A DNA stretch of 56,486 nt from Candidatus Curtissbacteria bacterium RIFCSPLOWO2_02_41_11 (GTDB taxonomy: Bacteria; Patescibacteriota; Microgenomatia; Curtissbacterales; GWA2-41-24): the NCBI GenBank assembly GCA_001775055.1, contig MFBU01000002.1, forward strand, positions 1 through 56,486, written 5' to 3'. The notes beneath the pieces were generated by a model. That model worked only from the letters and a program-made list of their open reading frames with translations, made no database searches and was not told the DNA's origin. A program made the translations under genes and the position numbers. Positions 2,376-39,827 of this stretch are shown here, one piece after another; positions within the stretch are counted from its first letter, which is position 1, and every line of letters starts with the position of its first letter.

Positions 2376-3365
2376 TTAAAAATATTTGGAGGCAAAATCG
2401 TTTCCGATAACTAAGCTAACCTCCTCGTCACTACTGGACGAGCTTTTTATATCACATTTAAAAATATTTGCCAAATAACGCACAGTGTATTTATTTTTGG
2501 CAGAAGTTTGAATAAAAGTTTGGTCAACAAGATTTGGGGCTGTCTCAATCTTAACTATATTAACACCCACGCTGGCTGCAAAATCGGCGGCCAGTTGCCC
2601 GACTCCGGCAATGCCGGAAGCATTGATAACTTTTATTTTTAAATTTTCTTTTGTAACATTTTCATTTTCCAAATATTGGGATATGACTTTGTGTAAAACA
2701 AGATTATCTACTCCCAGTACTTTTTGATCATTTTTATAAACAACATCCTCCTGATATTGCGAAAGATCAATCAATTCTAACTGATTTACACGAACATTTT
2801 TCAGCTGCCACCACAACCTTAATTGATCAATGCGGGTAATATTTGTGTCCTTAATATCATCCCCGATTCTCCCTGTTAAAGTCATAAAAGGTGCCGCCAG
2901 TGACGAATAATTTTTAAACCATTTGGTAACCTCTTCTTTATTAATTTTCTGATCATTTTTAAAGATAACATAATTTTCAATATCGGCCCGAAAAGCAAGA
3001 CTTAGTAAACGAGTAAGACCCCCTCCATAACTTTTATTTATAAGTGAAGAAATTGTTGCGATCGGTTCATTGGGATTACCAGTTGCCAAATAGGTCTTTT
3101 CGTCAATTGTTAGAAAAACCAATCTTTTTGGATCTCCCTGAAGAATCAAAACAGCAAGTGGTGTTGTCGAGAGTACAGCCACAAAAGATGAATTGCTATT
3201 CCAGTTAGAGGTACCTAAATATTTGTTAATGGAGAAAGTTTTAACTAGACCGTTAAAACTTGCCAAAACCAAAATCAAAACAATTAAGAATGCCGACAAA
3301 TTCTTCCATTTTGCCTGAACCTGACGCCTTCTCCATGCTGATCTTCGGGCAGGATAGTCTGTCAT
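2376..3365 (-). CDS. LytR C-terminal domain-containing membrane protein (divergent LCP-like)
   Basis: N-terminal TM; C-terminal IKVINASGIAGVG...VSLVIGNDF matches the LytR_C pattern. Confidence 0.75.
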   Translation of the reverse strand: MTDYPARRSAWRRRQVQAKWKNLSAFLIVLILVLASFNGLVKTFSINKYLGTSNWNSNSSFVAVLSTTPLAVLILQGDPKRLVFLTIDEKTYLATGNPNEPIATISSLINKSYGGGLTRLLSLAFRADIENYVIFKNDQKINKEEVTKWFKNYSSLAAPFMTLTGRIGDDIKDTNITRIDQLRLWWQLKNVRVNQLELIDLSQYQEDVVYKNDQKVLGVDNLVLHKVISQYLENENVTKENLKIKVINASGIAGVGQLAADFAASVGVNIVKIETAPNLVDQTFIQTSAKNKYTVRYLANIFKCDIKSSSSSDEEVSLVIGNDFASKYF

Positions 3366-10281: not shown

Positions 10282-11184
10282 ATGTCTACGCATAGAGAGA
10301 GGGAAGGCTCCCAAAATCGTGTAGAGGCAAATATTCATCTCCTTGGTGAACTTGTTGCCGAAAAGAACAGGGATTCAAAAGAAAAGATCAAGATGATAGA
10401 AGATCTGAAAATCTTGTCTGCCCCAGATGACGCCCTAATCAAACTTGCCATGCTTCGAATGGATACCCAGCAATTGGTAGATACTCTTCCTGCCAAGCAA
10501 GAAATCATTGCTGATATCATTCGCAGATACGCTATTGAAACCGAAATAGATGAAAATTTTTTAAGACAGATGTTAATTATTGCAGACAGACATTTAAAAA
10601 CCCCTGAAGAGGAAAGAGACGAGGAGTTTTTACGGCAAGAACAGGAAGTGGTCACAAACGTGATAAACAGCTTGAATGACAGAAGAGCCAGAGAAAGACT
10701 TACCAGAGAAAATGAACAAAAACACGAAGTTGAAATAAGCGGTGGACGAGTTTTTAACTTTTTTGTTTCGCAAGACGGAGAAAGTGTTCGAATGGATCTT
10801 CCAATAATAACTGACCCAAACAAAACAAGGGTAGCAATCGGTCCAGAAGCTGTAGTTGAAATACTTGGGGCAAAATTAACCTTTGAAGATTACGACAGAA
10901 TAGCAGAGACTCTACTTTCTTTTAAAGGTGGAGTAGGTAGGGTTATTCGGGCTTACGCTTTTGCTGTAGAAACATGGGCCGACTTATCATCGCAAGGCTT
11001 TGATGCAAGTGAGACCCGCGATAGCAGAAGACTAAGATCTTACGCAATTAGAAAAACCTTTAACGGTGAAGATCCTAAAATTGGGCCTTTCGTCGACATT
11101 CCTCTAAATTCAATATTTACATATGTTACCAAACGATATCCATTAATAGCCCTAAAAAATCCTCCACAACCGTTTAGCGAATAA
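10282..11184 (+). CDS. hypothetical protein (300 aa)
   Basis: long charged ORF downstream of the tRNA; TGTTATAAT 8 nt before ATG. Confidence 0.8.
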   Translation: MSTHREREGSQNRVEANIHLLGELVAEKNRDSKEKIKMIEDLKILSAPDDALIKLAMLRMDTQQLVDTLPAKQEIIADIIRRYAIETEIDENFLRQMLIIADRHLKTPEEERDEEFLRQEQEVVTNVINSLNDRRARERLTRENEQKHEVEISGGRVFNFFVSQDGESVRMDLPIITDPNKTRVAIGPEAVVEILGAKLTFEDYDRIAETLLSFKGGVGRVIRAYAFAVETWADLSSQGFDASETRDSRRLRSYAIRKTFNGEDPKIGPFVDIPLNSIFTYVTKRYPLIALKNPPQPFSE

Positions 11185-35398: not shown

Positions 35399-35480
35399 GC
35401 TTTCTCAATTCTAGCATTTTGCGACCCGAAAGAAAACCGAAGATTATTAGGGGGATGTGAAACAGAGTGAAAAGAAGTAA

Positions 35481-35543
35481 ACAGTTAACTGGATTGAAAT
35501 TATCAAATATCCTGAATCAGTTTACCAGAAGTCCGTACAATTA
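35481..35543 (+). repeat. accessory-block direct repeat, copy 1
   Basis: reads TVNWIEIIKYPESVYQKSVQL. Confidence 0.8.
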
Positions 35544-35578
35544 TATTGCAAAACTAAACCGAGATAATGCTGTGTATT

Positions 35579-36478
35579 TTAGATATAGATTAAATAAAGG
35601 CCAAGCATCATTAATAAAATTGACATAACTTTAACACCTAAGACATCTTTACCAAGTTCTTCTTTAAGTATTTTTGGCAACCAAAATGAAAGGAACACAG
35701 CATAGACGAGTACAAATAAACTTTGGAATCCTCTAAATACACTAACTAGAGTAACCGGACCGATAGCTAAAGCCCAAAGGCCGCTTAGCGAGGCTGTGGT
35801 CACAAAAAACATACCTAATATCAGTAGCGTCCAACCTATTGGCTTCAGACCTGAAAGACTTTTAATAAATCTGCTTCTGAAAGATGCTATTAACAAAAGA
35901 AGTAGCGGAGTGGGAAGAAATTCGCCAAAACCAAGGTATACTGTCAAATCCCAAAATGGGTGAGCAACGTATAAAGATTTCAAAATTACTGCATAAATTG
36001 CGTAAATTAAACTGGATAGAACCATCCACCAGAAGGCGACTCTTAACTTAAATACTCCTTTTGTTTTCTGAAGGGAAATTAAGAGACCGCCTAACAAAAT
36101 TAGCACAAAGGCTAAGTAATGGGTCAGTGTTAATACTTCTCCCAAAAACAAAAGGGAAAGTATTAAAACAAAAGGTGGAGTAAACTGAAATAGAGGTATC
36201 ACTCTGGAGATTTCCTCTTTAGATATAGCTTGGTAGAAAGCAAAGACAGCAACTATCTGAAATGCCCCAGCAAATATTACCAGTGCCGCTGGACCAAAAC
36301 CTATCCACCTCAAACCATTAAAGATGATAATGACCAGAGACAGAAGTAACGCAGAAATGCCAGCGATTAATGTGAGAGTGAGAGAATCAGGGAGATATCT
36401 TCCTCTTAAAAGTTTATCGACTATATTATCTGCTGCCCATAGAGCCCTAGAGAAAAGAGAAAAAATCACCCAATCCAT
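35579..36478 (-). CDS. EamA/DMT family transporter
   Basis: 10-TM pattern; EISRVIPL and FLGE motifs. Confidence 0.88.
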   Translation of the reverse strand: MDWVIFSLFSRALWAADNIVDKLLRGRYLPDSLTLTLIAGISALLLSLVIIIFNGLRWIGFGPAALVIFAGAFQIVAVFAFYQAISKEEISRVIPLFQFTPPFVLILSLLFLGEVLTLTHYLAFVLILLGGLLISLQKTKGVFKLRVAFWWMVLSSLIYAIYAVILKSLYVAHPFWDLTVYLGFGEFLPTPLLLLLIASFRSRFIKSLSGLKPIGWTLLILGMFFVTTASLSGLWALAIGPVTLVSVFRGFQSLFVLVYAVFLSFWLPKILKEELGKDVLGVKVMSILLMMLGLYLIYI

Positions 36479-36508
36479 TTAGCTGAAATTATAGCAAAAG
36501 TTCGAATT

Positions 36509-36547
36509 TTAGCTGGGATTCCTCAGTTTGAAATAAGGGAATTTCAC
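36509..36547 (-). pseudogene. 12-codon stub MKFPYFKLRNPS, probably a truncated partner of the upstream gene
   Basis: GTG overlaps the upstream TAG; the frame stops immediately before the ATTCGAAC motif. Confidence 0.4.
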
Positions 36548-36738
36548 TAAGGTGCTATCGGGCCGTAAGATTTTGCGCCTTTCATAAGTACAGGTTTCTT
36601 TTCTCCGTCCGCTCTGGCACGCTCAAGTGCAACCTTAATTGTTCTTCCCCAACCTGCGACCTTTTTATAATCGGACGACAAGGCGATCCATCCGCTCGTA
36701 TAATTTTTGGTGATTTTAGTTAAATCAATAGGTTTCAC
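36547..36738 (-). CDS. DUF5678-like small protein
   Basis: Y..GWIAL...KVAGWG.T...AL..A...GEKKPVL. Confidence 0.7.
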   Translation of the reverse strand: MKPIDLTKITKNYTSGWIALSSDYKKVAGWGRTIKVALERARADGEKKPVLMKGAKSYGPIAP

Positions 36739-36788
36739 AGTATTATTTTAGCATAATGTGTAAATCCTGATTTTAAAAGCTGGCAATT

Positions 36789-36860
36789 TTGGACGATTTC
36801 CGAACTGTTGGTTGAGTTGGACTTATTCCTTATCCTAAATTAGTTTATCAACAATCAAAA
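36789..36860 (+). repeat. accessory-block direct repeat, copy 2
   Basis: reads LDDFRTVG*VGLIPYPKLVYQQSK. Confidence 0.75.
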
Positions 36861-36944
36861 GTTTTTCTGCAACAATAAAGTATCACTTACCGAAAATTTA
36901 TTAAAGTTGAGTACATAACCGACTTTTGCTAAAATTCTGAAACC

Positions 36945-37949
36945 ATGAGAAAAGAAAGTCTAAATGTTCCTATAGTAGATAGATACAAAGGCTGCTTGTT
37001 GGGTGTAGCTGCAGGTGATGCTTTGGGTCAGCCCGTGGAATTCATACCACTCAATGGAAAGGACAAAGCCTTAGAGAGATTTGATGAACCATGGAAAAGG
37101 AAAATTAGAAAGTTTATCAAAGAAATTCAAGAAAAACACGGTGGGGTTATTCGTGAAATGTTACTAAATCCTTTTGGATATTGGGAAAAAGGTGAATATA
37201 CAGATGACACAACTCAAACCTTACTCTTAGCTGATAGTTTTATTGAGAAAGGTAAATATGATCCAGATGATTTTGTTAGTAGATTACTAAAATGGTATGA
37301 CAATGGTAAAGCCAAAGGTATAGGCAGAACCACAGAGCTAAGCCTCGGTTTAATAAATGCAGGTGTTGCTGATTGGAAAAGTGTGGGAAAGTATGTATTG
37401 AAAAATTTTGGTAAGTTTTTCTCTAATGGTTCACTCATGAGAACCTCACCTGTGGGTTTATATTTTAGAGAATACATAGAAGATATTGATCGGGTAGCAG
37501 CTGAGCTTTCGATAATAACTCATGCAGCTGAACCTGCAATTGTGGTTTGTCAAATGGCAAGCCAATTAGTATCACAACTAGTAAGTGGTGTGCCCAAAAA
37601 TGAAGCAGTTGACTTTATCGAGAGGAAGTTTAAAACTGCTTATGAAAATGTCTATAATTCCTATAGCGATTATGAAAAGTATCCGATGAATGCCGATTCA
37701 ACATTCTCAGTTGCTTTAATTTCTTTTGCTAATGCAGATAGTTTTGAAGAAGCTGTGGTTGAGGCGGTCAATAAAGGTGGAGACACAGATACATGTGGCT
37801 CAGTGGCTGGAGCACTTGCGGGAGCTTATTGGGGCGTTGCCCAAATACCTGAAAGATGGGCAAAATGTCTAAAACCACAAAGTGCTCAACAAATTGGTAG
37901 TAAAGCTGAAAAATTGTACCTTCTAAATACTTCTTTACGTAGAAGTTGA
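36945..37949 (+). CDS. ADP-ribosylglycohydrolase (DraG/ARH family)
   Basis: G.AAGDALG, YTDDT, NGSLMR, ITH and GGDTDT motifs. Confidence 0.95.
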   Translation: MRKESLNVPIVDRYKGCLLGVAAGDALGQPVEFIPLNGKDKALERFDEPWKRKIRKFIKEIQEKHGGVIREMLLNPFGYWEKGEYTDDTTQTLLLADSFIEKGKYDPDDFVSRLLKWYDNGKAKGIGRTTELSLGLINAGVADWKSVGKYVLKNFGKFFSNGSLMRTSPVGLYFREYIEDIDRVAAELSIITHAAEPAIVVCQMASQLVSQLVSGVPKNEAVDFIERKFKTAYENVYNSYSDYEKYPMNADSTFSVALISFANADSFEEAVVEAVNKGGDTDTCGSVAGALAGAYWGVAQIPERWAKCLKPQSAQQIGSKAEKLYLLNTSLRRS

Positions 37950-38113
37950 GCTGCTTTAGTTACTAACTTCCTTGAACTTTTGGTCTAATGCAAAGTTAAA
38001 ATTAGAATCCCATGTAAGATTGCACGTTTGCTCTGGTTTTCTGAGGCTAAGAAAAAAGCTGGGTAGGCTAGCCTAAACCATTTCTCTCCTTATACACAAA
38101 ACAGTAACATACA

Positions 38114-38902
38114 CTAGCCATTATCTTTAGGGTTTATTTTAAAAAACGAATCTCGTTGATCACTTTGTGTAATTTTAATTCCCTTTACTGCCATTTCATT
38201 ACTTACACTGTTAGGTAAGTAGACTATAGTTTTTTCTGCAGAATAGTATCTTGCGATGGGAGAAAAATCATAAGTTCCAACGTAAATACCTGTAACGTTT
38301 TTGCCAATAAATTTACCATGAAGTTTGTGATTTGCACCAATTCTAATTAAATCCACCAATTTGTCTGTAATTAACTTTCTATCTCCCTTTTTTTCTCTTT
38401 TCATAAATTTTCTAACTTTTTTGCTTCTTTTGTTAAAGTAATCTTCCTGTGTTGCTGGCAAATACCCATCGCACTTTAGAAATATAGAATCCTCGAGATT
38501 TTTTTTGTCTAAAACGAAACAATTACTATCGACATTGGAAATACTGAAATAAAAACGTTGAAATATATCTTCATAATCACTCCAGCCAATTCCCGTCAAA
38601 ATTAGGTTACCTTTATGGGTATATGTTTCATTCAATTTCTCTCTTAAAAACGTCACGATATCTTCTGGTCCTTTGTTTCCTATTTTATAGTTACTTAATT
38701 CATTTGTTAGCCAGTCATGGACCTTTACATTTTTTATATAAGCCACACCTGTATATGATGTTAGAAAGCAAAAATGGTTTCCTCTAACTTGAGTCTGTTT
38801 AACTGAAAAATCATCGTGTAACTTTCCATTTTGATCGGTAAGTCTCATATCTGAAGTTTGGAACAAACAGTTTTTGTTTGCTGCTGTTATTATTAGTGTC
38901 AT
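38114..38902 (-). CDS. hypothetical protein, possible Ntn-hydrolase (proteasome-beta-like) fold
   Basis: starts MTLII...SDMRLT with Thr2, then YTG; AT-rich. Confidence 0.55.
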   Translation of the reverse strand: MTLIITAANKNCLFQTSDMRLTDQNGKLHDDFSVKQTQVRGNHFCFLTSYTGVAYIKNVKVHDWLTNELSNYKIGNKGPEDIVTFLREKLNETYTHKGNLILTGIGWSDYEDIFQRFYFSISNVDSNCFVLDKKNLEDSIFLKCDGYLPATQEDYFNKRSKKVRKFMKREKKGDRKLITDKLVDLIRIGANHKLHGKFIGKNVTGIYVGTYDFSPIARYYSAEKTIVYLPNSVSNEMAVKGIKITQSDQRDSFFKINPKDNG

Positions 38903-38941
38903 ATTTGGTTTGCAAAAAGTCCTAACATATTTGTGAAGGCA

Positions 38942-39022
38942 CTAGCTAATGATTTCCGAACTGCAAATTGGGTAGAAATTATTAAATATCCAGAGTTAGT
39001 TTATCAGAAATCGTAGCAATTT
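38942..39022 (+). repeat. accessory-block direct repeat, copy 3
   Basis: reads LANDFRTANWVEIIKYPELVYQKS*QF; overlaps the 3' end of the HAD gene. Confidence 0.8.
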
Positions 39023-39601
39023 CTTTCTTAAATCACCAGAATTTGTAAATAATATAGTCTTCATACCCATCTTAGCTGCTGGTTGTAAAAACTGGGGAAT
39101 ATCATCAATGAATATTGCCTCGTTGGCTCTAACGCCAGCCTTTTGTAGTGCTATTCTGTAAATCTTTGGGTTTGGCTTCCTTACTCCTACTTCGTGCGAA
39201 AAGACCCCATCTTCAAACCATGAAATAAAATCATGTTCTTTATTGAGTTTTTCGACCCGTTCTTTAACATTATCTGACAAAAATAGTAATTTATACTTTT
39301 TTGAAAGTTCTTTAATTAAATCTTTGGTTTCCGTTATTAGTTCGTACTGGTTAATCCACTCTGTCTCTAATTTATCTGCATCCTCACTAATACCTAACTC
39401 ATTTAAAAATCTTTCCCAAAATTCATCTCTAGAGATTTTTGACTCTCGATACAAAGAACCTATTTCCCCGTGCATTACCGTATTTACTTTTTCTCTATTC
39501 AGATTGTAAGTTTTAATTAAGTATTTAATGAAGCTCTTTGTACCGTTGGTAAAGAGTACCCCACCCAAATCAAAAATAATTGCTTTGACCATACAAATCA
39601 T
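38996..39601 (-). CDS. HAD family phosphatase
   Basis: IFDLGGV, LSD, KP.P.IY and FIDD motifs. Confidence 0.93.
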   Translation of the reverse strand: MICMVKAIIFDLGGVLFTNGTKSFIKYLIKTYNLNREKVNTVMHGEIGSLYRESKISRDEFWERFLNELGISEDADKLETEWINQYELITETKDLIKELSKKYKLLFLSDNVKERVEKLNKEHDFISWFEDGVFSHEVGVRKPNPKIYRIALQKAGVRANEAIFIDDIPQFLQPAAKMGMKTILFTNSGDLRKKLLRFLIN

Positions 39602-39712
39602 TATACCTAAAGTTCGAATTCACTTCGCGGTTGTTCTGTTTAATACAGTTTTTTGAGGCTAAAAATCCGGGTTCTGTATTAAAACTTCCCGTATAACAAA
39701 TCAATAAATGCT

Positions 39713-39755
39713 TTGGGTGAAATGATTGAACTATCTTGAAATTTTGCCAAAGAAA
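39713..39755 (+). repeat. accessory-block direct repeat, copy 4 (degenerate)
   Basis: TTGGGTGAAATGATTGAACTATCTTGAA versus copy 3 TTGGGTAGAAATTATTAAATATCCAGAG. Confidence 0.5.
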
Positions 39756-39827
39756 GAAGTGCTTTTTAATTTCCCATTGACATAACTTTGCTTTTATCTA
39801 GAATAGAAGTAAGAACAATTTATAAAA

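Follow-up and report, generated by a model that had tools for sequence, protein, structure and literature searches.

Orphan 3' ends of large serine recombinase genes as probable relics of insertion around accessory genes in a Curtissbacteria genome

Introduction

Bacteria of the candidate phyla make do with tiny genomes, and little is understood of how they acquire genes. In Candidatus Curtissbacteria bacterium RIFCSPLOWO2_02_41_11, a stretch of 56,486 nucleotides (the window) holds, between DUF763 and PhoU_div, a 4.3-kb array in which short same-strand repeats alternate with unrelated genes. What are these repeats, and how did they come to lie around such cargo? We propose, with a probability of roughly 0.7, that they are orphan 3' ends of large serine recombinase (LSR) genes from integrative elements, left as relics of independent insertions around accessory genes.

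Repeats and cargo of the array

The array contains the following features.

35481..35567, + strand: block c1, putative LSR tail relic, canonical 5' part absent (nhmmer, tblastn)
35579..36478, - strand: cargo, EamA-family transporter, 299 aa (Pfam PF00892, E 1.1e-13)
36488..36508, - strand: 21-mer AATTCGAACTTTTGCTATAAT resembling a promoter, shortly before the EamA start (repeat family D9, 90% alike)
36547..36738, - strand: cargo, 63-aa ORF, no Pfam family at E<=0.01
36780..36878, + strand: block c2, putative full-length LSR tail relic with internal TGA (nhmmer, reading frame)
36945..37949, + strand: cargo, ADP-ribosylglycohydrolase, 334 aa (Pfam PF03747, E 4.5e-62)
38114..38902, - strand: cargo, 262-aa ORF, sub-threshold Pfam match only (19 bits, cut-off 31)
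38946..39031, + strand: block c3, the best-preserved putative tail relic of the window (nhmmer, reading frames, sequence)
38996..39601, - strand: cargo, HAD-family hydrolase, 201 aa (Pfam PF13419, E 2.2e-16)
39600..39620, - strand: the same promoter-like 21-mer again, shortly before the HAD start (repeat family D9)
39713..39768, + strand: candidate copy 4, a very degenerate tail remnant if one at all (by-eye alignment alone)

A DNA profile (nhmmer) made from 38 block copies found elsewhere, 2 in the same genome and 36 in relatives, with c1-c3 left out, was run against the 56-kb window and matched c3 at 38938-39029 (E 2.3e-24), c2 at 36779-36876 (E 8.7e-14) and c1 at 35480-35543 (E 1e-12), the next-ranked match having an E of 0.98. 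The same three places, all on the + strand, were recovered by tblastn. An earlier, sequence-only reading had counted four direct repeats, of which the first three are real and lie where it put them, while the fourth, at 39713, gave no match by tblastn (E<=5) or nhmmer (E<=10). By eye, copy 4 is ~60% alike with one gap; it stops where the array ends on the right in the variant contigs (39769-39772).

The retained part of c1, TVNWIEIIKYPESVYQKSVQLYCKTKPR*, has neither stop nor indel, and upstream of it a degenerate 5' part interrupted by an insert may extend as far as ~35447. c2, whose left edge is AAG|CTGGCAATTTTGGACGATTTCCGAAC, reads KLAILDDFRTVG*VGLIPYPKLVYQQSKVFLQQ*, or, written in parts, (K)LAILDDFRTVG*VGLIPYPKLVYQQSKVFLQQ*. 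c3 reads LANDFRTANWVEIIKYPELVYQKS*QFLS*, given also as (LA)NDFRTANWVEIIKYPELVYQKS*QFLS*, with a TAG after QKS and a 5' part short by ~10 nt. The peptide consensus proposed earlier agrees with these translations. Stops or indels had been ascribed to copies 2-4; they are present in c2 (the internal TGA) and c3 (the TAG and the 5' deletion), and the ascription is unsupported for copy 4. As had also been seen, c1 and c3 differ chiefly at third codon positions (10 of 13 differences, over 18 codons). The window copies are 58-71% alike to one another over 66 nt, and c1 and c3 each match copies from other genera (79% and 88%) better than they match one another; the three relics are judged from these likenesses to be of independent origin.

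Among the cargo families named before, EamA, ADP-ribosylglycohydrolase and HAD were recovered by Pfam; DUF5678 could not be confirmed because the 63-aa ORF matched no family, nor could 'Ntn-like', because the match of the 262-aa ORF stayed below threshold. The cargo is indeed AT-rich (GC 0.32-0.38 over 36-40 kb, against 0.40-0.43 in four flanking 1-kb bins on each side). The EamA gene is convergent on c1, its stop lying 11 nt past the c1 stop, and the 3' end of the HAD gene (last codons and stop) lies inside c3 on the opposite strand, an overlap of 36 nt. TTCCGAACT is present in c2 and c3, and the related TTCGAACT lies on the opposite strand at 36496-36503 and 39608-39615, ahead of the EamA and HAD genes, both as reported earlier. 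TTCGAACT sits within a 21-nt stretch common to these two genes (19/21 alike), which terminates in TATAAT 9-12 nt ahead of their start codons; the motif TTCGAA-N5-9-TATAAT occurs three times genome-wide, and two of the three are the EamA and HAD boxes. No homology was found for any pair among 13 convergent block neighbours plus EamA and HAD, and the block-adjacent cargo of relatives comprises toxin-antitoxin pairs, transporters and small enzymes.

Neither a recombinase of any kind (Pfam, 61 window ORFs) nor a tRNA (window array) was found, and tblastn with 30 LSRs and 6 fragments gave tails only and no LSR bodies in the array. This genome has two LSR genes, which are of other subfamilies and both in the cut, integrated state. 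In two contigs of run X1, perhaps the source sample itself, 35441/35443 is connected to 39769/39772 through 21-25 other letters (joints resting on sides of 21 nt at 90% likeness), at depths of 18 and 33.5 against 108.6 for the main form; variants without the entire 4.3 kb appear to co-occur. The variant-contig site likewise has no tRNA.

The block as a recombinase tail

The block, with the consensus (K)LGVVDDFRTANWVEIIKYPELVYQKSxQFLQ*, has 6 copies in this genome and was found in 34 of 61 relatives, in short frames in every case (20-99 aa across the 61 genomes). Its conservation begins at NNG|CT, with unrelated DNA to the left. Column entropy at codon positions 1, 2 and 3 is 1.00, 0.67 and 1.53 (codons 10-31, 42 copies), and the flanks are flat at ~1.9; with variation that follows codon positions, the block is evidently of coding origin. 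From block codon 1, 21 of the 42 copies are open through a stop 30-45 codons on, and about half carry stops, indels or 21-30-nt inserts. The first codon is no start in most copies (CAG, TGG, AAG, TAG), and some have ATG or TTG at the crossover codon, a few of them after GAGG (L039:4192-4290, L042, L020, L044). Arrays with blocks spaced 1.2-3 kb apart and LSR-free between them recur in relatives (G024:C4, G015:C8, G009:C78, G041:C3, G032:C94, G019:C36), and 138 ORFs lying no more than 2.6 kb from blocks contained no Resolvase/Recombinase domain. A single block, C14:105586-105762, keeps ~30 extra LSR codons upstream.

When 19 intact blocks were made into a 33-residue profile and 1.84 billion proteins were searched with it, 327 matches (protein clusters) were obtained at E<=1e-3; the best 150 of the 327 were mostly 30-100 aa, and 20 of them were inspected. 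By BLASTP, P0014, P0038, P0067, P0092 and P0143 are LSR C-terminal pieces ending in the block, and P0086 matches LSRs through the tail only. P0014, a 228-aa piece in which a Pfam scan gave Zn_ribbon_recom, below cut-off only, is 94% identical to P0157, and the two diverge directly after WL. A search for longer proteins seeded with P0014 returned 112 (425-552 aa, E<=1e-10), of which 108 are listed with PF00239, PF07508 and PF13408, the remaining 4 being short of one. Most of them cover 86-88% of P0014 and end at the tail start; coverage is 100% for P0222 and P0230 only. The tail of P0230 is degenerate, and P0222 (517 aa; PF00239, PF07508, PF13408) ends in a well-conserved one, ...WLARWDDFRTANWMEIVEYPDVTLQQTQDLLAISV. 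The exact V-type tail (VVDDFRTANWVEIIKYPELVYQKS) was not seen on any full-length LSR among these proteins; the full-length examples carry a related W-type tail, and in P0025 (126 aa) a V-like tail is joined to only ~30 additional LSR-like residues. On sequence similarity, then, the block is the C-terminal tail of an LSR family, and the link to recombinase C-termini suggested earlier is borne out by P0222. Membership of an unrelated small protein family, with fixed gene content between repeats, is not what was found: cargo differs everywhere, and the carriers of the block are mostly tiny spurious ORFs.

The attachment site and the tRNA junction

Where the tail would begin, the LSR ORF runs into an antisense tRNA at 14 of 30 LSR loci of relatives, none of which carries the block, and both LSR genes of this genome likewise continue into an antisense tRNA. 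The pattern recurs at 38 loci with P0222-like LSRs: in 17, the ORF ends inside an antisense tRNA called by ARAGORN (12 Asn, 3 Arg, 1 Glu, 1 Gln), and 5 more have the signature ...WLP[RH]xDSN... with no called tRNA. In a three-way DNA comparison, blocks show unrelated sequence, then NNG|CTCGC... or NNG|CTGGGAG...; LSR ORFs change to antisense tRNA at TGG|CT; and L123, an LSR with a contiguous tail, reads across the same point (...CGTCAAGCCTGG|CTCGCCCGATGGGATGATTTC). In the integrated L092, ...CGTCAAGCTTGG|CTGCGGGAC, the right side is an antisense tRNA-Gln. The LSR frame enters the antisense tRNA exactly at the tail start, and the attachment site should therefore lie inside the LSR gene. The left edge of the block is taken to be the LSR attachment-site crossover, in line with the overlap with an att site suspected earlier, and its exact central dinucleotide is predicted from these alignments. 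The T-loop likeness that had been remarked on probably reflects a block start resembling the antisense of a tRNA 3' end.

The order of tail, cargo and antisense tRNA is found in contigs C1 and C14 of this genome, with no LSR, and also at L006 and L049. In G041:C3, two tails are followed by 6.8 kb and then by an LSR and a tRNA, and in G025:C3 a tail precedes two LSRs and a tRNA-Asn.

A model for the array

Under the proposed explanation, each block would be the stranded last ~33 codons, with the stop, of an element's LSR gene. attP would lie inside that gene, with the crossover at ...W|L..., where TGG would be the antisense of the tRNA CCA end. When the element enters a tRNA gene at its 3' end, the LSR body would remain beside the tRNA, its frame reading into the antisense tRNA, and the conserved tail, from G|CT on, would go to the opposite end of the element, abutting the cargo gene that came after the LSR in the circular form. 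The array in the window would then represent three attL-type junction relics, each with foreign DNA, then the crossover, then the tail, from which the LSR bodies and the tRNA target have since gone and which are decaying, presumably with no present function. It may have been built by serial LSR-mediated insertion (accretion) with loss of LSR bodies, or by capture in trans of LSR-less segments.

Random deletion of the LSR bodies should have left remnants of LSR 3' sequence of differing length ahead of the blocks, but most blocks start sharply at the crossover, as would be expected if they had been joined site-specifically to non-LSR DNA; decay fits less well. It should be noted that, to our knowledge, a hybrid site is not normally used again by serine integrases. 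For repeated insertion at a single tRNA, the outer half-site would have to be relaxed, which counts against the explanation, and the position of the array is left unexplained by a tRNA-targeting model because the variant-contig site has no tRNA.

Competing explanations

The same sharp block starts with unrelated DNA to the left, the recurrent LSR-free arrays and the lack of recombinase domains near blocks would also suit a live integron-like cassette system, in which the blocks are functional sites and LSR-less segments are moved in trans by an LSR, either one of the genome's own two or one on an incoming element. Cis-mobilizable islands with no integration module have been proposed for a related serine recombinase (PMC3146451), and in run X1 c3 is weakly joined back to c2 (38979 to 36826, depth 2.9). 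This joint, however, lies in mid-tail, off the crossover, and below the listing threshold of the tool, and run X1 showed loss of the whole array only, with no single-cassette loss or circles. In addition, none of the window copies is intact (c1 lacks its 5' part, c2 has an internal stop and c3 a 5' deletion), the DNA left of the blocks has no conserved second half-site (mirror-symmetry scan at best 8.4/24, against a mean of 6.2), and the genome's own LSRs are of other subfamilies and cut. The sequence-only reading had favored such a system with its recombinase encoded elsewhere; on this evidence we consider it unlikely. Its fuller form, in which the tails are working sites of a trans-served serine-integrase cassette system and the tail is also a direction switch, is a shade less likely again. 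If true, LSR-less cargo would be exchanged, in candidate-phyla bacteria at large, among tail blocks and tRNA ends, and the ~33-residue tail, cut at insertion and restored at excision or the next insertion, would set the direction of the integrase, giving a serine-recombinase counterpart of the integron with directionality control built in.

Little probability attaches to the blocks being small genes for a ~33-35-aa peptide under selection, for example one complementing or regulating the truncated integrase. The codon-type conservation, the half of the copies that stay open and the occasional ATG or TTG at the crossover codon speak for it, but divergence of the parent LSRs before each insertion explains the codon pattern equally well, most copies lack a start at the first codon, about half are disrupted, and all three window copies are broken. 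That the blocks are displaced 3' ends of a host target gene, or else a structured RNA or attC-like hairpin, has hardly any probability. The repeats derive from coding sequence, share one strand and finish at a stop codon, as pieces of a host gene could, yet no long host ORF ending in the block exists in the 61 genomes, and LSRs are the only long proteins that do so. One copy, C14:171636-171734, folds well as single-stranded DNA (z -5.08), but c2 and c3 fold no better than shuffled sequence (z 0.87 and 0.17), z is below -2 in only 3 of 24 copies, and covariation is absent (of 18 pairs, 11.54 within a copy and 11.53 between copies). Nor is there an Rfam match at the blocks: a scan of seven block loci at E<=1 returned only tRNAs elsewhere in the loci and one chance snoRNA match.

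Relation to known systems

The closest known case to the orphan LSR ends proposed here is that of the Dehalococcoides ssrA islands with their CcrB-like serine recombinase DsiB (McMurdie et al. 2011, PMC3146451). These islands are tandem, bounded by direct repeats and beside a tRNA-like target; the DsiB ORF 'always overlaps attL at its 3' end', so that its stop lies outside the island; and many islands are devoid of the integration module, for which either mobilization in cis or fixation through accretion was proposed (PMC3146451). The same paper describes the repeat as a 20-bp ssrA piece plus a 15-bp motif, judges the ORF beyond att to be non-functional and divergent, and draws a comparison with staphylococcal SCC (PMC3146451). 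Both systems carry accessory cargo, whereas the repeat described here is ~90 nt of conserved recombinase coding sequence, a tail shared across many genera; the targets are ordinary tRNA genes, with a putative crossover at the CCA/discriminator end and not in the T-loop; and the window array is away from any tRNA.

Composite SCC islands stack in tandem at one site through the large serine recombinases CcrAB/CcrC, include recombinase-less pseudo-SCC segments, and have as borders direct repeats that derive from coding sequence, namely the 3' end of the protein-coding target gene rlmH. The array resembles them in its serine-recombinase islands, coding-origin direct repeats and recombinase-less segments, and differs in that its repeat would come from the recombinase gene and not the target, which is a tRNA instead of a protein-coding gene. 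Integrons have the tyrosine recombinase IntI, with attI and Pc, beside an array of attC sites, and their cassettes are promoterless and co-oriented; attC is an imperfect palindrome conserved as a folded single strand, not as sequence. A same-strand series of short repeats between unrelated small cargo, including toxin-antitoxin pairs in relatives, is common to both, but here the repeat is conserved as protein-coding sequence and not as a hairpin, the cargo lies in both orientations, and at least EamA and HAD have their own promoter-like box. An integron was considered and rejected, as the window has no IntI-type tyrosine recombinase and the blocks, with conservation that follows codon positions, are not attC-like folds; a classical tRNA/tmRNA island was set aside as well, no host gene or tRNA of this genome ending in the block.

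Self-disrupting tyrosine recombinases offer another parallel. In myxophage Mx8 IntP/IntX and the SSV-type 'suicidal' archaeal integrases, attP lies within the integrase gene, and integration into a tRNA gene alters or splits the integrase and leaves fragments at the borders, a splitting for which She et al. reportedly used the name 'gene capture'. An attP inside the integrase gene and gene fragments at element borders are features they would share with the LSRs described here, although their chemistry is unrelated, and the SSV type splits its gene near the middle, whereas here ~33 of ~517 residues are removed. These systems are mentioned in PMC4383910 and reviewed in PMC8371274, and the review treats self-disrupting integrases as archaea-only.

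Significance

Self-splitting integrases are, in textbook accounts, confined to the archaeal tyrosine recombinases (PMC8371274), and serine integrases are said not to target tRNA genes (PMC4383910), a statement already contradicted for tmRNA by PMC3146451. An attachment site within the integrase gene, with removal of the tail on insertion, is of interest for the control of direction in serine integrases. For the bacterium, the tail relics would mark points at which foreign genes were inserted into a small genome. The tail is a simple signature of the DNA of one serine-integrase element family, even where no integrase is present. Since this signature outlasts the integrase, a profile of it can map old insertion boundaries and accessory genes across lineages.

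Repeat blocks and their coding character

A DNA profile whose 38 source copies all lie outside the window array recovers three blocks in the window, and the next-best match after them has an E-value of 0.98.

Blocks in the window (translation; nhmmer E-value with the 38-copy profile)
c1: 35481-35567, plus strand, TVNWIEIIKYPESVYQKSVQLYCKTKPR-stop, E 1e-12
c2: 36780-36878, plus strand, (K)LAILDDFRTVG-stop-VGLIPYPKLVYQQSKVFLQQ-stop, E 8.7e-14
c3: 38946-39031, plus strand, (LA)NDFRTANWVEIIKYPELVYQKS-stop-QFLS-stop, E 2.3e-24

Four same-strand repeats had been reported in the sequence-only reading; these three stand, and neither tblastn nor nhmmer detects a copy at 39713. Over 18 codons, c1 and c3 show 13 differences, of which 10 are at third positions. 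The genome (25 contigs, 1.08 Mb, 99.8% complete) carries three further copies, on contigs C14 (105670-105768 and, on the minus strand, 171636-171734) and C1 (3077-3148), none of which terminates a long ORF. With a 33-aa query, matches at E<=1 are found in 34 of 61 related genomes and, within the family, matches at E<=1e-3 in 20 of 32; there are mostly several per genome, often spaced 1.2-3 kb on one contig, and the open frames that contain them are 20-99 aa long. The blocks fall into two types, namely the V type, (K)LGVVDDFRTANWVEIIKYPELVYQKSxQFLQ, and the W type, (W)LAGWDDFRTADWAEIVEYPELTLQQTQQLLQL. Over codons 10-31 of 42 copies, entropy at codon positions 1, 2 and 3 is 1.00, 0.67 and 1.53, with both flanks flat at ~1.9; the block has therefore been shaped as protein-coding sequence. 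Stops, indels or short inserts are present in about half of the copies.

In approximately 12 of the 42 copies, the block is interrupted within its first 30 nt by an insert of 21-30 nt. These inserts form one CTGAGTGTAATCGAAG-like family, occur in both orientations and at differing positions, and often form hairpins.

Blocks with an insert (loci of relatives, and one in this genome)
L016; L034; L037:8464; L038:5670 and 7288; L039:55; L041:6276
L043:1993 and 9374; L046; L049; L050; C1:3050-3085 of this genome

Other origins of the block were considered. A host gene with the block as its C-terminus is found neither in this genome nor in the 61 relatives, and the blocks match no Rfam family. Displaced tRNA 3' fragments do not match them either; the only such pieces are 18-23 nt long and duplicate the ends of tRNA-Gln and tRNA-Gly at other places. 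A conserved hairpin, whether attC-like or another RNA structure, is rejected by the folding z-scores of c2 (0.87) and c3 (0.17), by z < -2 in only 3 of 24 copies, and by within-copy pairing equal to between-copy pairing (11.54 vs 11.53 of 18). V-type blocks, for example those at L001:2637-2735 (minus strand), L045 and L047, do have an imperfect dyad (GTAGTTGATGATTTC ... GAAATTATCAAATA[TC]) between the VVDDF and EIIKY codons, which pairs at 13-16 of 18 positions in V-type and 7-12 of 18 in W-type copies, with no covariation; a copy on C14 folds at -18 kcal/mol (z -5.08). The sequence TGAGGCTA, lying left of some blocks, was dropped as a marker, being common in the genome (58 found vs 33 expected).

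The parent protein

A word-based protein search with a 42-aa frame returned only two longer and seven similar-sized small ORFs and no recombinase, missing the large serine recombinases (LSRs) that were found afterwards by full HMMER search. In the latter, a profile of 19 intact blocks matched 327 proteins at E<=1e-3 among 1.84 billion representatives, nearly all of 30-126 aa among the 150 matches listed. Among 20 sequences inspected, the longer ones resemble C-terminal LSR parts, with a zinc-ribbon motif, a coiled-coil stretch, and then ...WLAGWDDFRTADWAEIVEYPELTLQQTQSLLQI-stop. By BLASTP, the proteins P0014, P0038, P0067, P0092 and P0143 are C-terminal parts of LSRs, and P0086 matches LSRs via the tail only. 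P0014 has 112 matches among longer proteins (425-552 aa), for 108 of which Resolvase, Recombinase and zinc-ribbon domains are all listed, the other four being without one of the three; in most, coverage of P0014 is 86-88% and ends at the tail start. P0222 (517 aa) continues past this point, through ...RQLWLARWDDFRTANWMEIVEYPDVTLQQTQDLLAISV, and P0230 covers 100% of P0014 with a degenerate tail. With tail-bearing pieces tied to LSRs by BLASTP and the P0014 search, and with P0222 ending in the tail, the link to serine recombinases made in the sequence-only reading is therefore correct.

LSR genes, antisense tRNAs and the crossover

Neither LSR gene of this genome (loci L053 and L054) has its own stop before the junction; the 3' end of each reads into antisense tRNA.

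LSR genes of this genome
C6:4549 to 6099 or 6110, reading through antisense tRNA-Asn
C9:63873-65564, reading through antisense tRNA-Leu(gag) and tRNA-Leu(cag), which adds ~60 codons

In the 61 related genomes, 14 of 30 LSR loci read into an antisense tRNA, and the block is absent from all 30. At P0222-like LSR loci of public genomes, the ORF ends inside an antisense tRNA called by ARAGORN in 17 of 38 (12 Asn, 3 Arg, 1 Glu and 1 Gln), and five more have the ending ...WLP[RH]xDSN... without a called tRNA. At a single locus of the 38, L123 (a Levybacteria record), the LSR gene is broken and a W-type tail adjoins it directly; a convergent gene stops 10 nt past the stop of this tail.

Three DNA states can be aligned (a slash marks the junction). 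At L123, LSR and tail are contiguous (...CGTCAAGCCTGG/CTCGCCCGATGGGATGATTTC); at the locus L092, ...CGTCAAGCTTGG/CTGCGGGAC... matches antisense tRNA-Gln exactly, starting at the CCA end; and at orphan blocks, unrelated sequence is followed by NNG/CTCGC... or NNG/CTGGGAG.... Moreover, P0014 and P0157, which are 94% identical, diverge directly after WL. These states and this divergence agree, so the predicted attachment site is inside the LSR gene, ~33 codons before its stop, and the predicted crossover is at or adjoining TGG/CT, the CCA/discriminator end of the tRNA. Placing the crossover in the middle of the V-type dyad, or in the T-loop, is disfavoured by the point at which the two proteins split and by the divergence of L092 from L123 at TGG/CT. 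The tail start resembles the antisense tRNA 3' end plus a few extra bases (CTGGGAGTAGTTGATGATTTCCGAACC or CTCGCAGGATGGGACGATTTCAGAAC vs CTGCCGGACTAGGATTCGAACC), from which we infer that the two are related half-sites; this would explain the T-loop resemblance remarked on earlier. The key proposal of the sequence-only reading, a recombinase C-terminus at an attachment site, is borne out, and the observation behind it was itself largely accurate.

Close relatives of P0222 are located at tRNA-Asn or tRNA-Arg ends in public records (L093-L128), with best-segment identities of 45-86%, most 54-82%. These records are labelled Levybacteria, Roizmanbacteria, Saccharibacteria, Dependentiae/Babeliales, Parachlamydiaceae, Alphaproteobacteria and 'Gammaproteobacteria', a spread reflecting either a very wide apparent host range or binning errors.

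Element geometry

Integration of this kind would keep the LSR body next to the tRNA and carry the tail to the element's opposite end, giving the expected order of tail, cargo, LSR (where retained) and antisense tRNA, with tail and LSR co-oriented.

Loci with the expected order
This genome, C1: tail 3077-3148, tRNA-Gln c[5255,5326]
This genome, C14: tail 171636-171734 (minus strand), tRNA-Gln 170681-170752
Loci L006 and L049
Relative G041, contig C3: two tails at 93.5 and 95.6 kb, LSR 102.5-104.1 kb, then a tRNA-Thr-like gene (called at relaxed threshold)
Relative G025, contig C3: tail 17.6 kb, LSRs 8.7-7.1 and 1.8-0.1 kb, tRNA-Asn 54-126

Convergent ORFs of at least 70 aa that end at most ~60 nt from the block's stop accompany 13 of the 26 blocks at 16 loci of relatives. 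The cargo near blocks in relatives consists mainly of toxin-antitoxin pairs, transporters and small enzymes, and among 138 ORFs within 2.6 kb of these blocks there is no integrase. Three relatives have a small stand-alone GIY-YIG nuclease gene (89-103 aa) at 0.2-2.5 kb from blocks (L043:9552-9818, L045:3754-4053 and L050:3129-3437).

In this genome, elements of ~105-165 nt directly follow tRNA-Gln (twice) and tRNA-Phe, at C1:5129-5254, C14:170753-170919 and C19 near 10726-10845 (L003, L001). Each ends in a ~23-nt duplicate of the 3' end of that tRNA and contains a CCCGCCAAAGCGGG-type hairpin; they may be remnants of another kind of tRNA-targeting insertion.

The window array

GC content is 0.32-0.38 over the array vs 0.40-0.43 in four 1-kb bins on each side. 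Of the cargo assignments made from sequence, Pfam confirms EamA, ADP-ribosylglycohydrolase and HAD and finds no family for the 63-aa ORF (taken as DUF5678) or the 262-aa ORF (taken as Ntn-like). The EamA gene ends 11 nt past c1, and the HAD gene overlaps c3 by 36 nt. The array holds no tRNA, no recombinase and, at E<=1, no remnants of an LSR body other than chance-level matches. Mutual likeness of c1-c3 is only 58-71% over 66 nt, and c1 and c3 are nearer to copies from other genera (79% and 88%) than to one another; they were therefore gained separately and did not arise by in-place duplication. No homology is found between the window cargo and genes adjoining 13 other blocks, or among those genes themselves.

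In sequencing run X1, possibly the source sample, 35441/35443 is connected to 39769/39772 through 21-25 other letters in two contig records, at depths of 18 and 33.5 vs 108.6 for the array-bearing form. Co-occurring variants without the whole 4.3-kb array are suggested by these joints, though not firmly, because each side of a joint is matched over just 21 nt, at a likeness threshold of 90. The joints place the left limit of the array at most 40 nt before c1. Among six relatives compared at the DUF763 locus, whose genera are too distant for an empty-site test, S9 hydrolase, DUF763 and PyrD occur together in G011 only; in this distant relative, S9 hydrolase and DUF763 are 1.3 kb apart, and the interval contains two different small genes but no block.

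Several smaller features were observed within the array. At 36511-36520 (TTTTAG/CTGGGATTCC) and 38058-38070 (AAAAAG/CTGGGTAGGC), the crossover and first 6-7 nt of a V-type block are followed by divergence, and these could be either chance matches or additional junction relics of much smaller size. The upstream regions of EamA and HAD have a 21-nt stretch, AATTCGAACTTTNGNTATAAT, in common (36488-36508 and 39600-39620, minus strand), ending 9-12 nt ahead of the start codon, which suggests near-leaderless transcripts; TTCGAA-N5-9-TATAAT occurs only three times in the genome. Within the 63-aa ORF (36573-36715), contigs of runs X20, X19 and X1 omit 141 nt, an indication that related strains have a variant or another sequence at this position.

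How the array formed

The shared orientation of the blocks would be accounted for if elements had inserted one after another at a single tRNA and if the LSR bodies and the tRNA had then been lost. However, this scenario predicts ragged LSR remnants upstream of the blocks, whereas most blocks start sharply at the crossover and ~30 extra LSR codons are found only at C14:105586-105762. Those sharp starts and scarce remnants fit site-specific joining of tails to non-LSR DNA, which would require either relaxed use of the outer half-site or movement of recombinase-less segments in trans, yet no conserved second half-site is found left of the blocks. In the Logan contigs of the sequencing runs, neither excision of single cassettes nor circles are seen; X1 contains one sub-threshold back-joint from c3 to c2 (depth 2.9), positioned mid-tail and away from the crossover.

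Comparison with known systems

Among the accounts consulted, the closest described system to the LSR-tail layout is that of the tandem Dehalococcoides islands at the tmRNA gene, in which the ORF of a CcrB-like serine recombinase overlaps attL in every case (McMurdie et al. 2011, PMC3146451). Many of these islands are without an integration module and have been proposed to be cis-mobilizable or fixed (PMC3146451). The Islander paper states that no serine integrases are known to target tRNA genes and that the Mx8 and SSV integrases reach across attP (PMC4383910). In a review of archaeal tyrosine recombinases, self-disrupting integrases are described as exclusively archaeal (PMC8371274). In the parts consulted of the published accounts, including Durrant 2022 and the tycheposon preprint, we found no description of candidate-phyla serine integrases spanning attP or of orphan tails. 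Orphan tails follow predictably from an integrase arrangement that has one earlier description among serine recombinases. The new points here are that the tail is conserved across many genera, that ordinary tRNA 3' ends serve as targets, and that orphan tails persist as markers dividing recombinase-less cargo.
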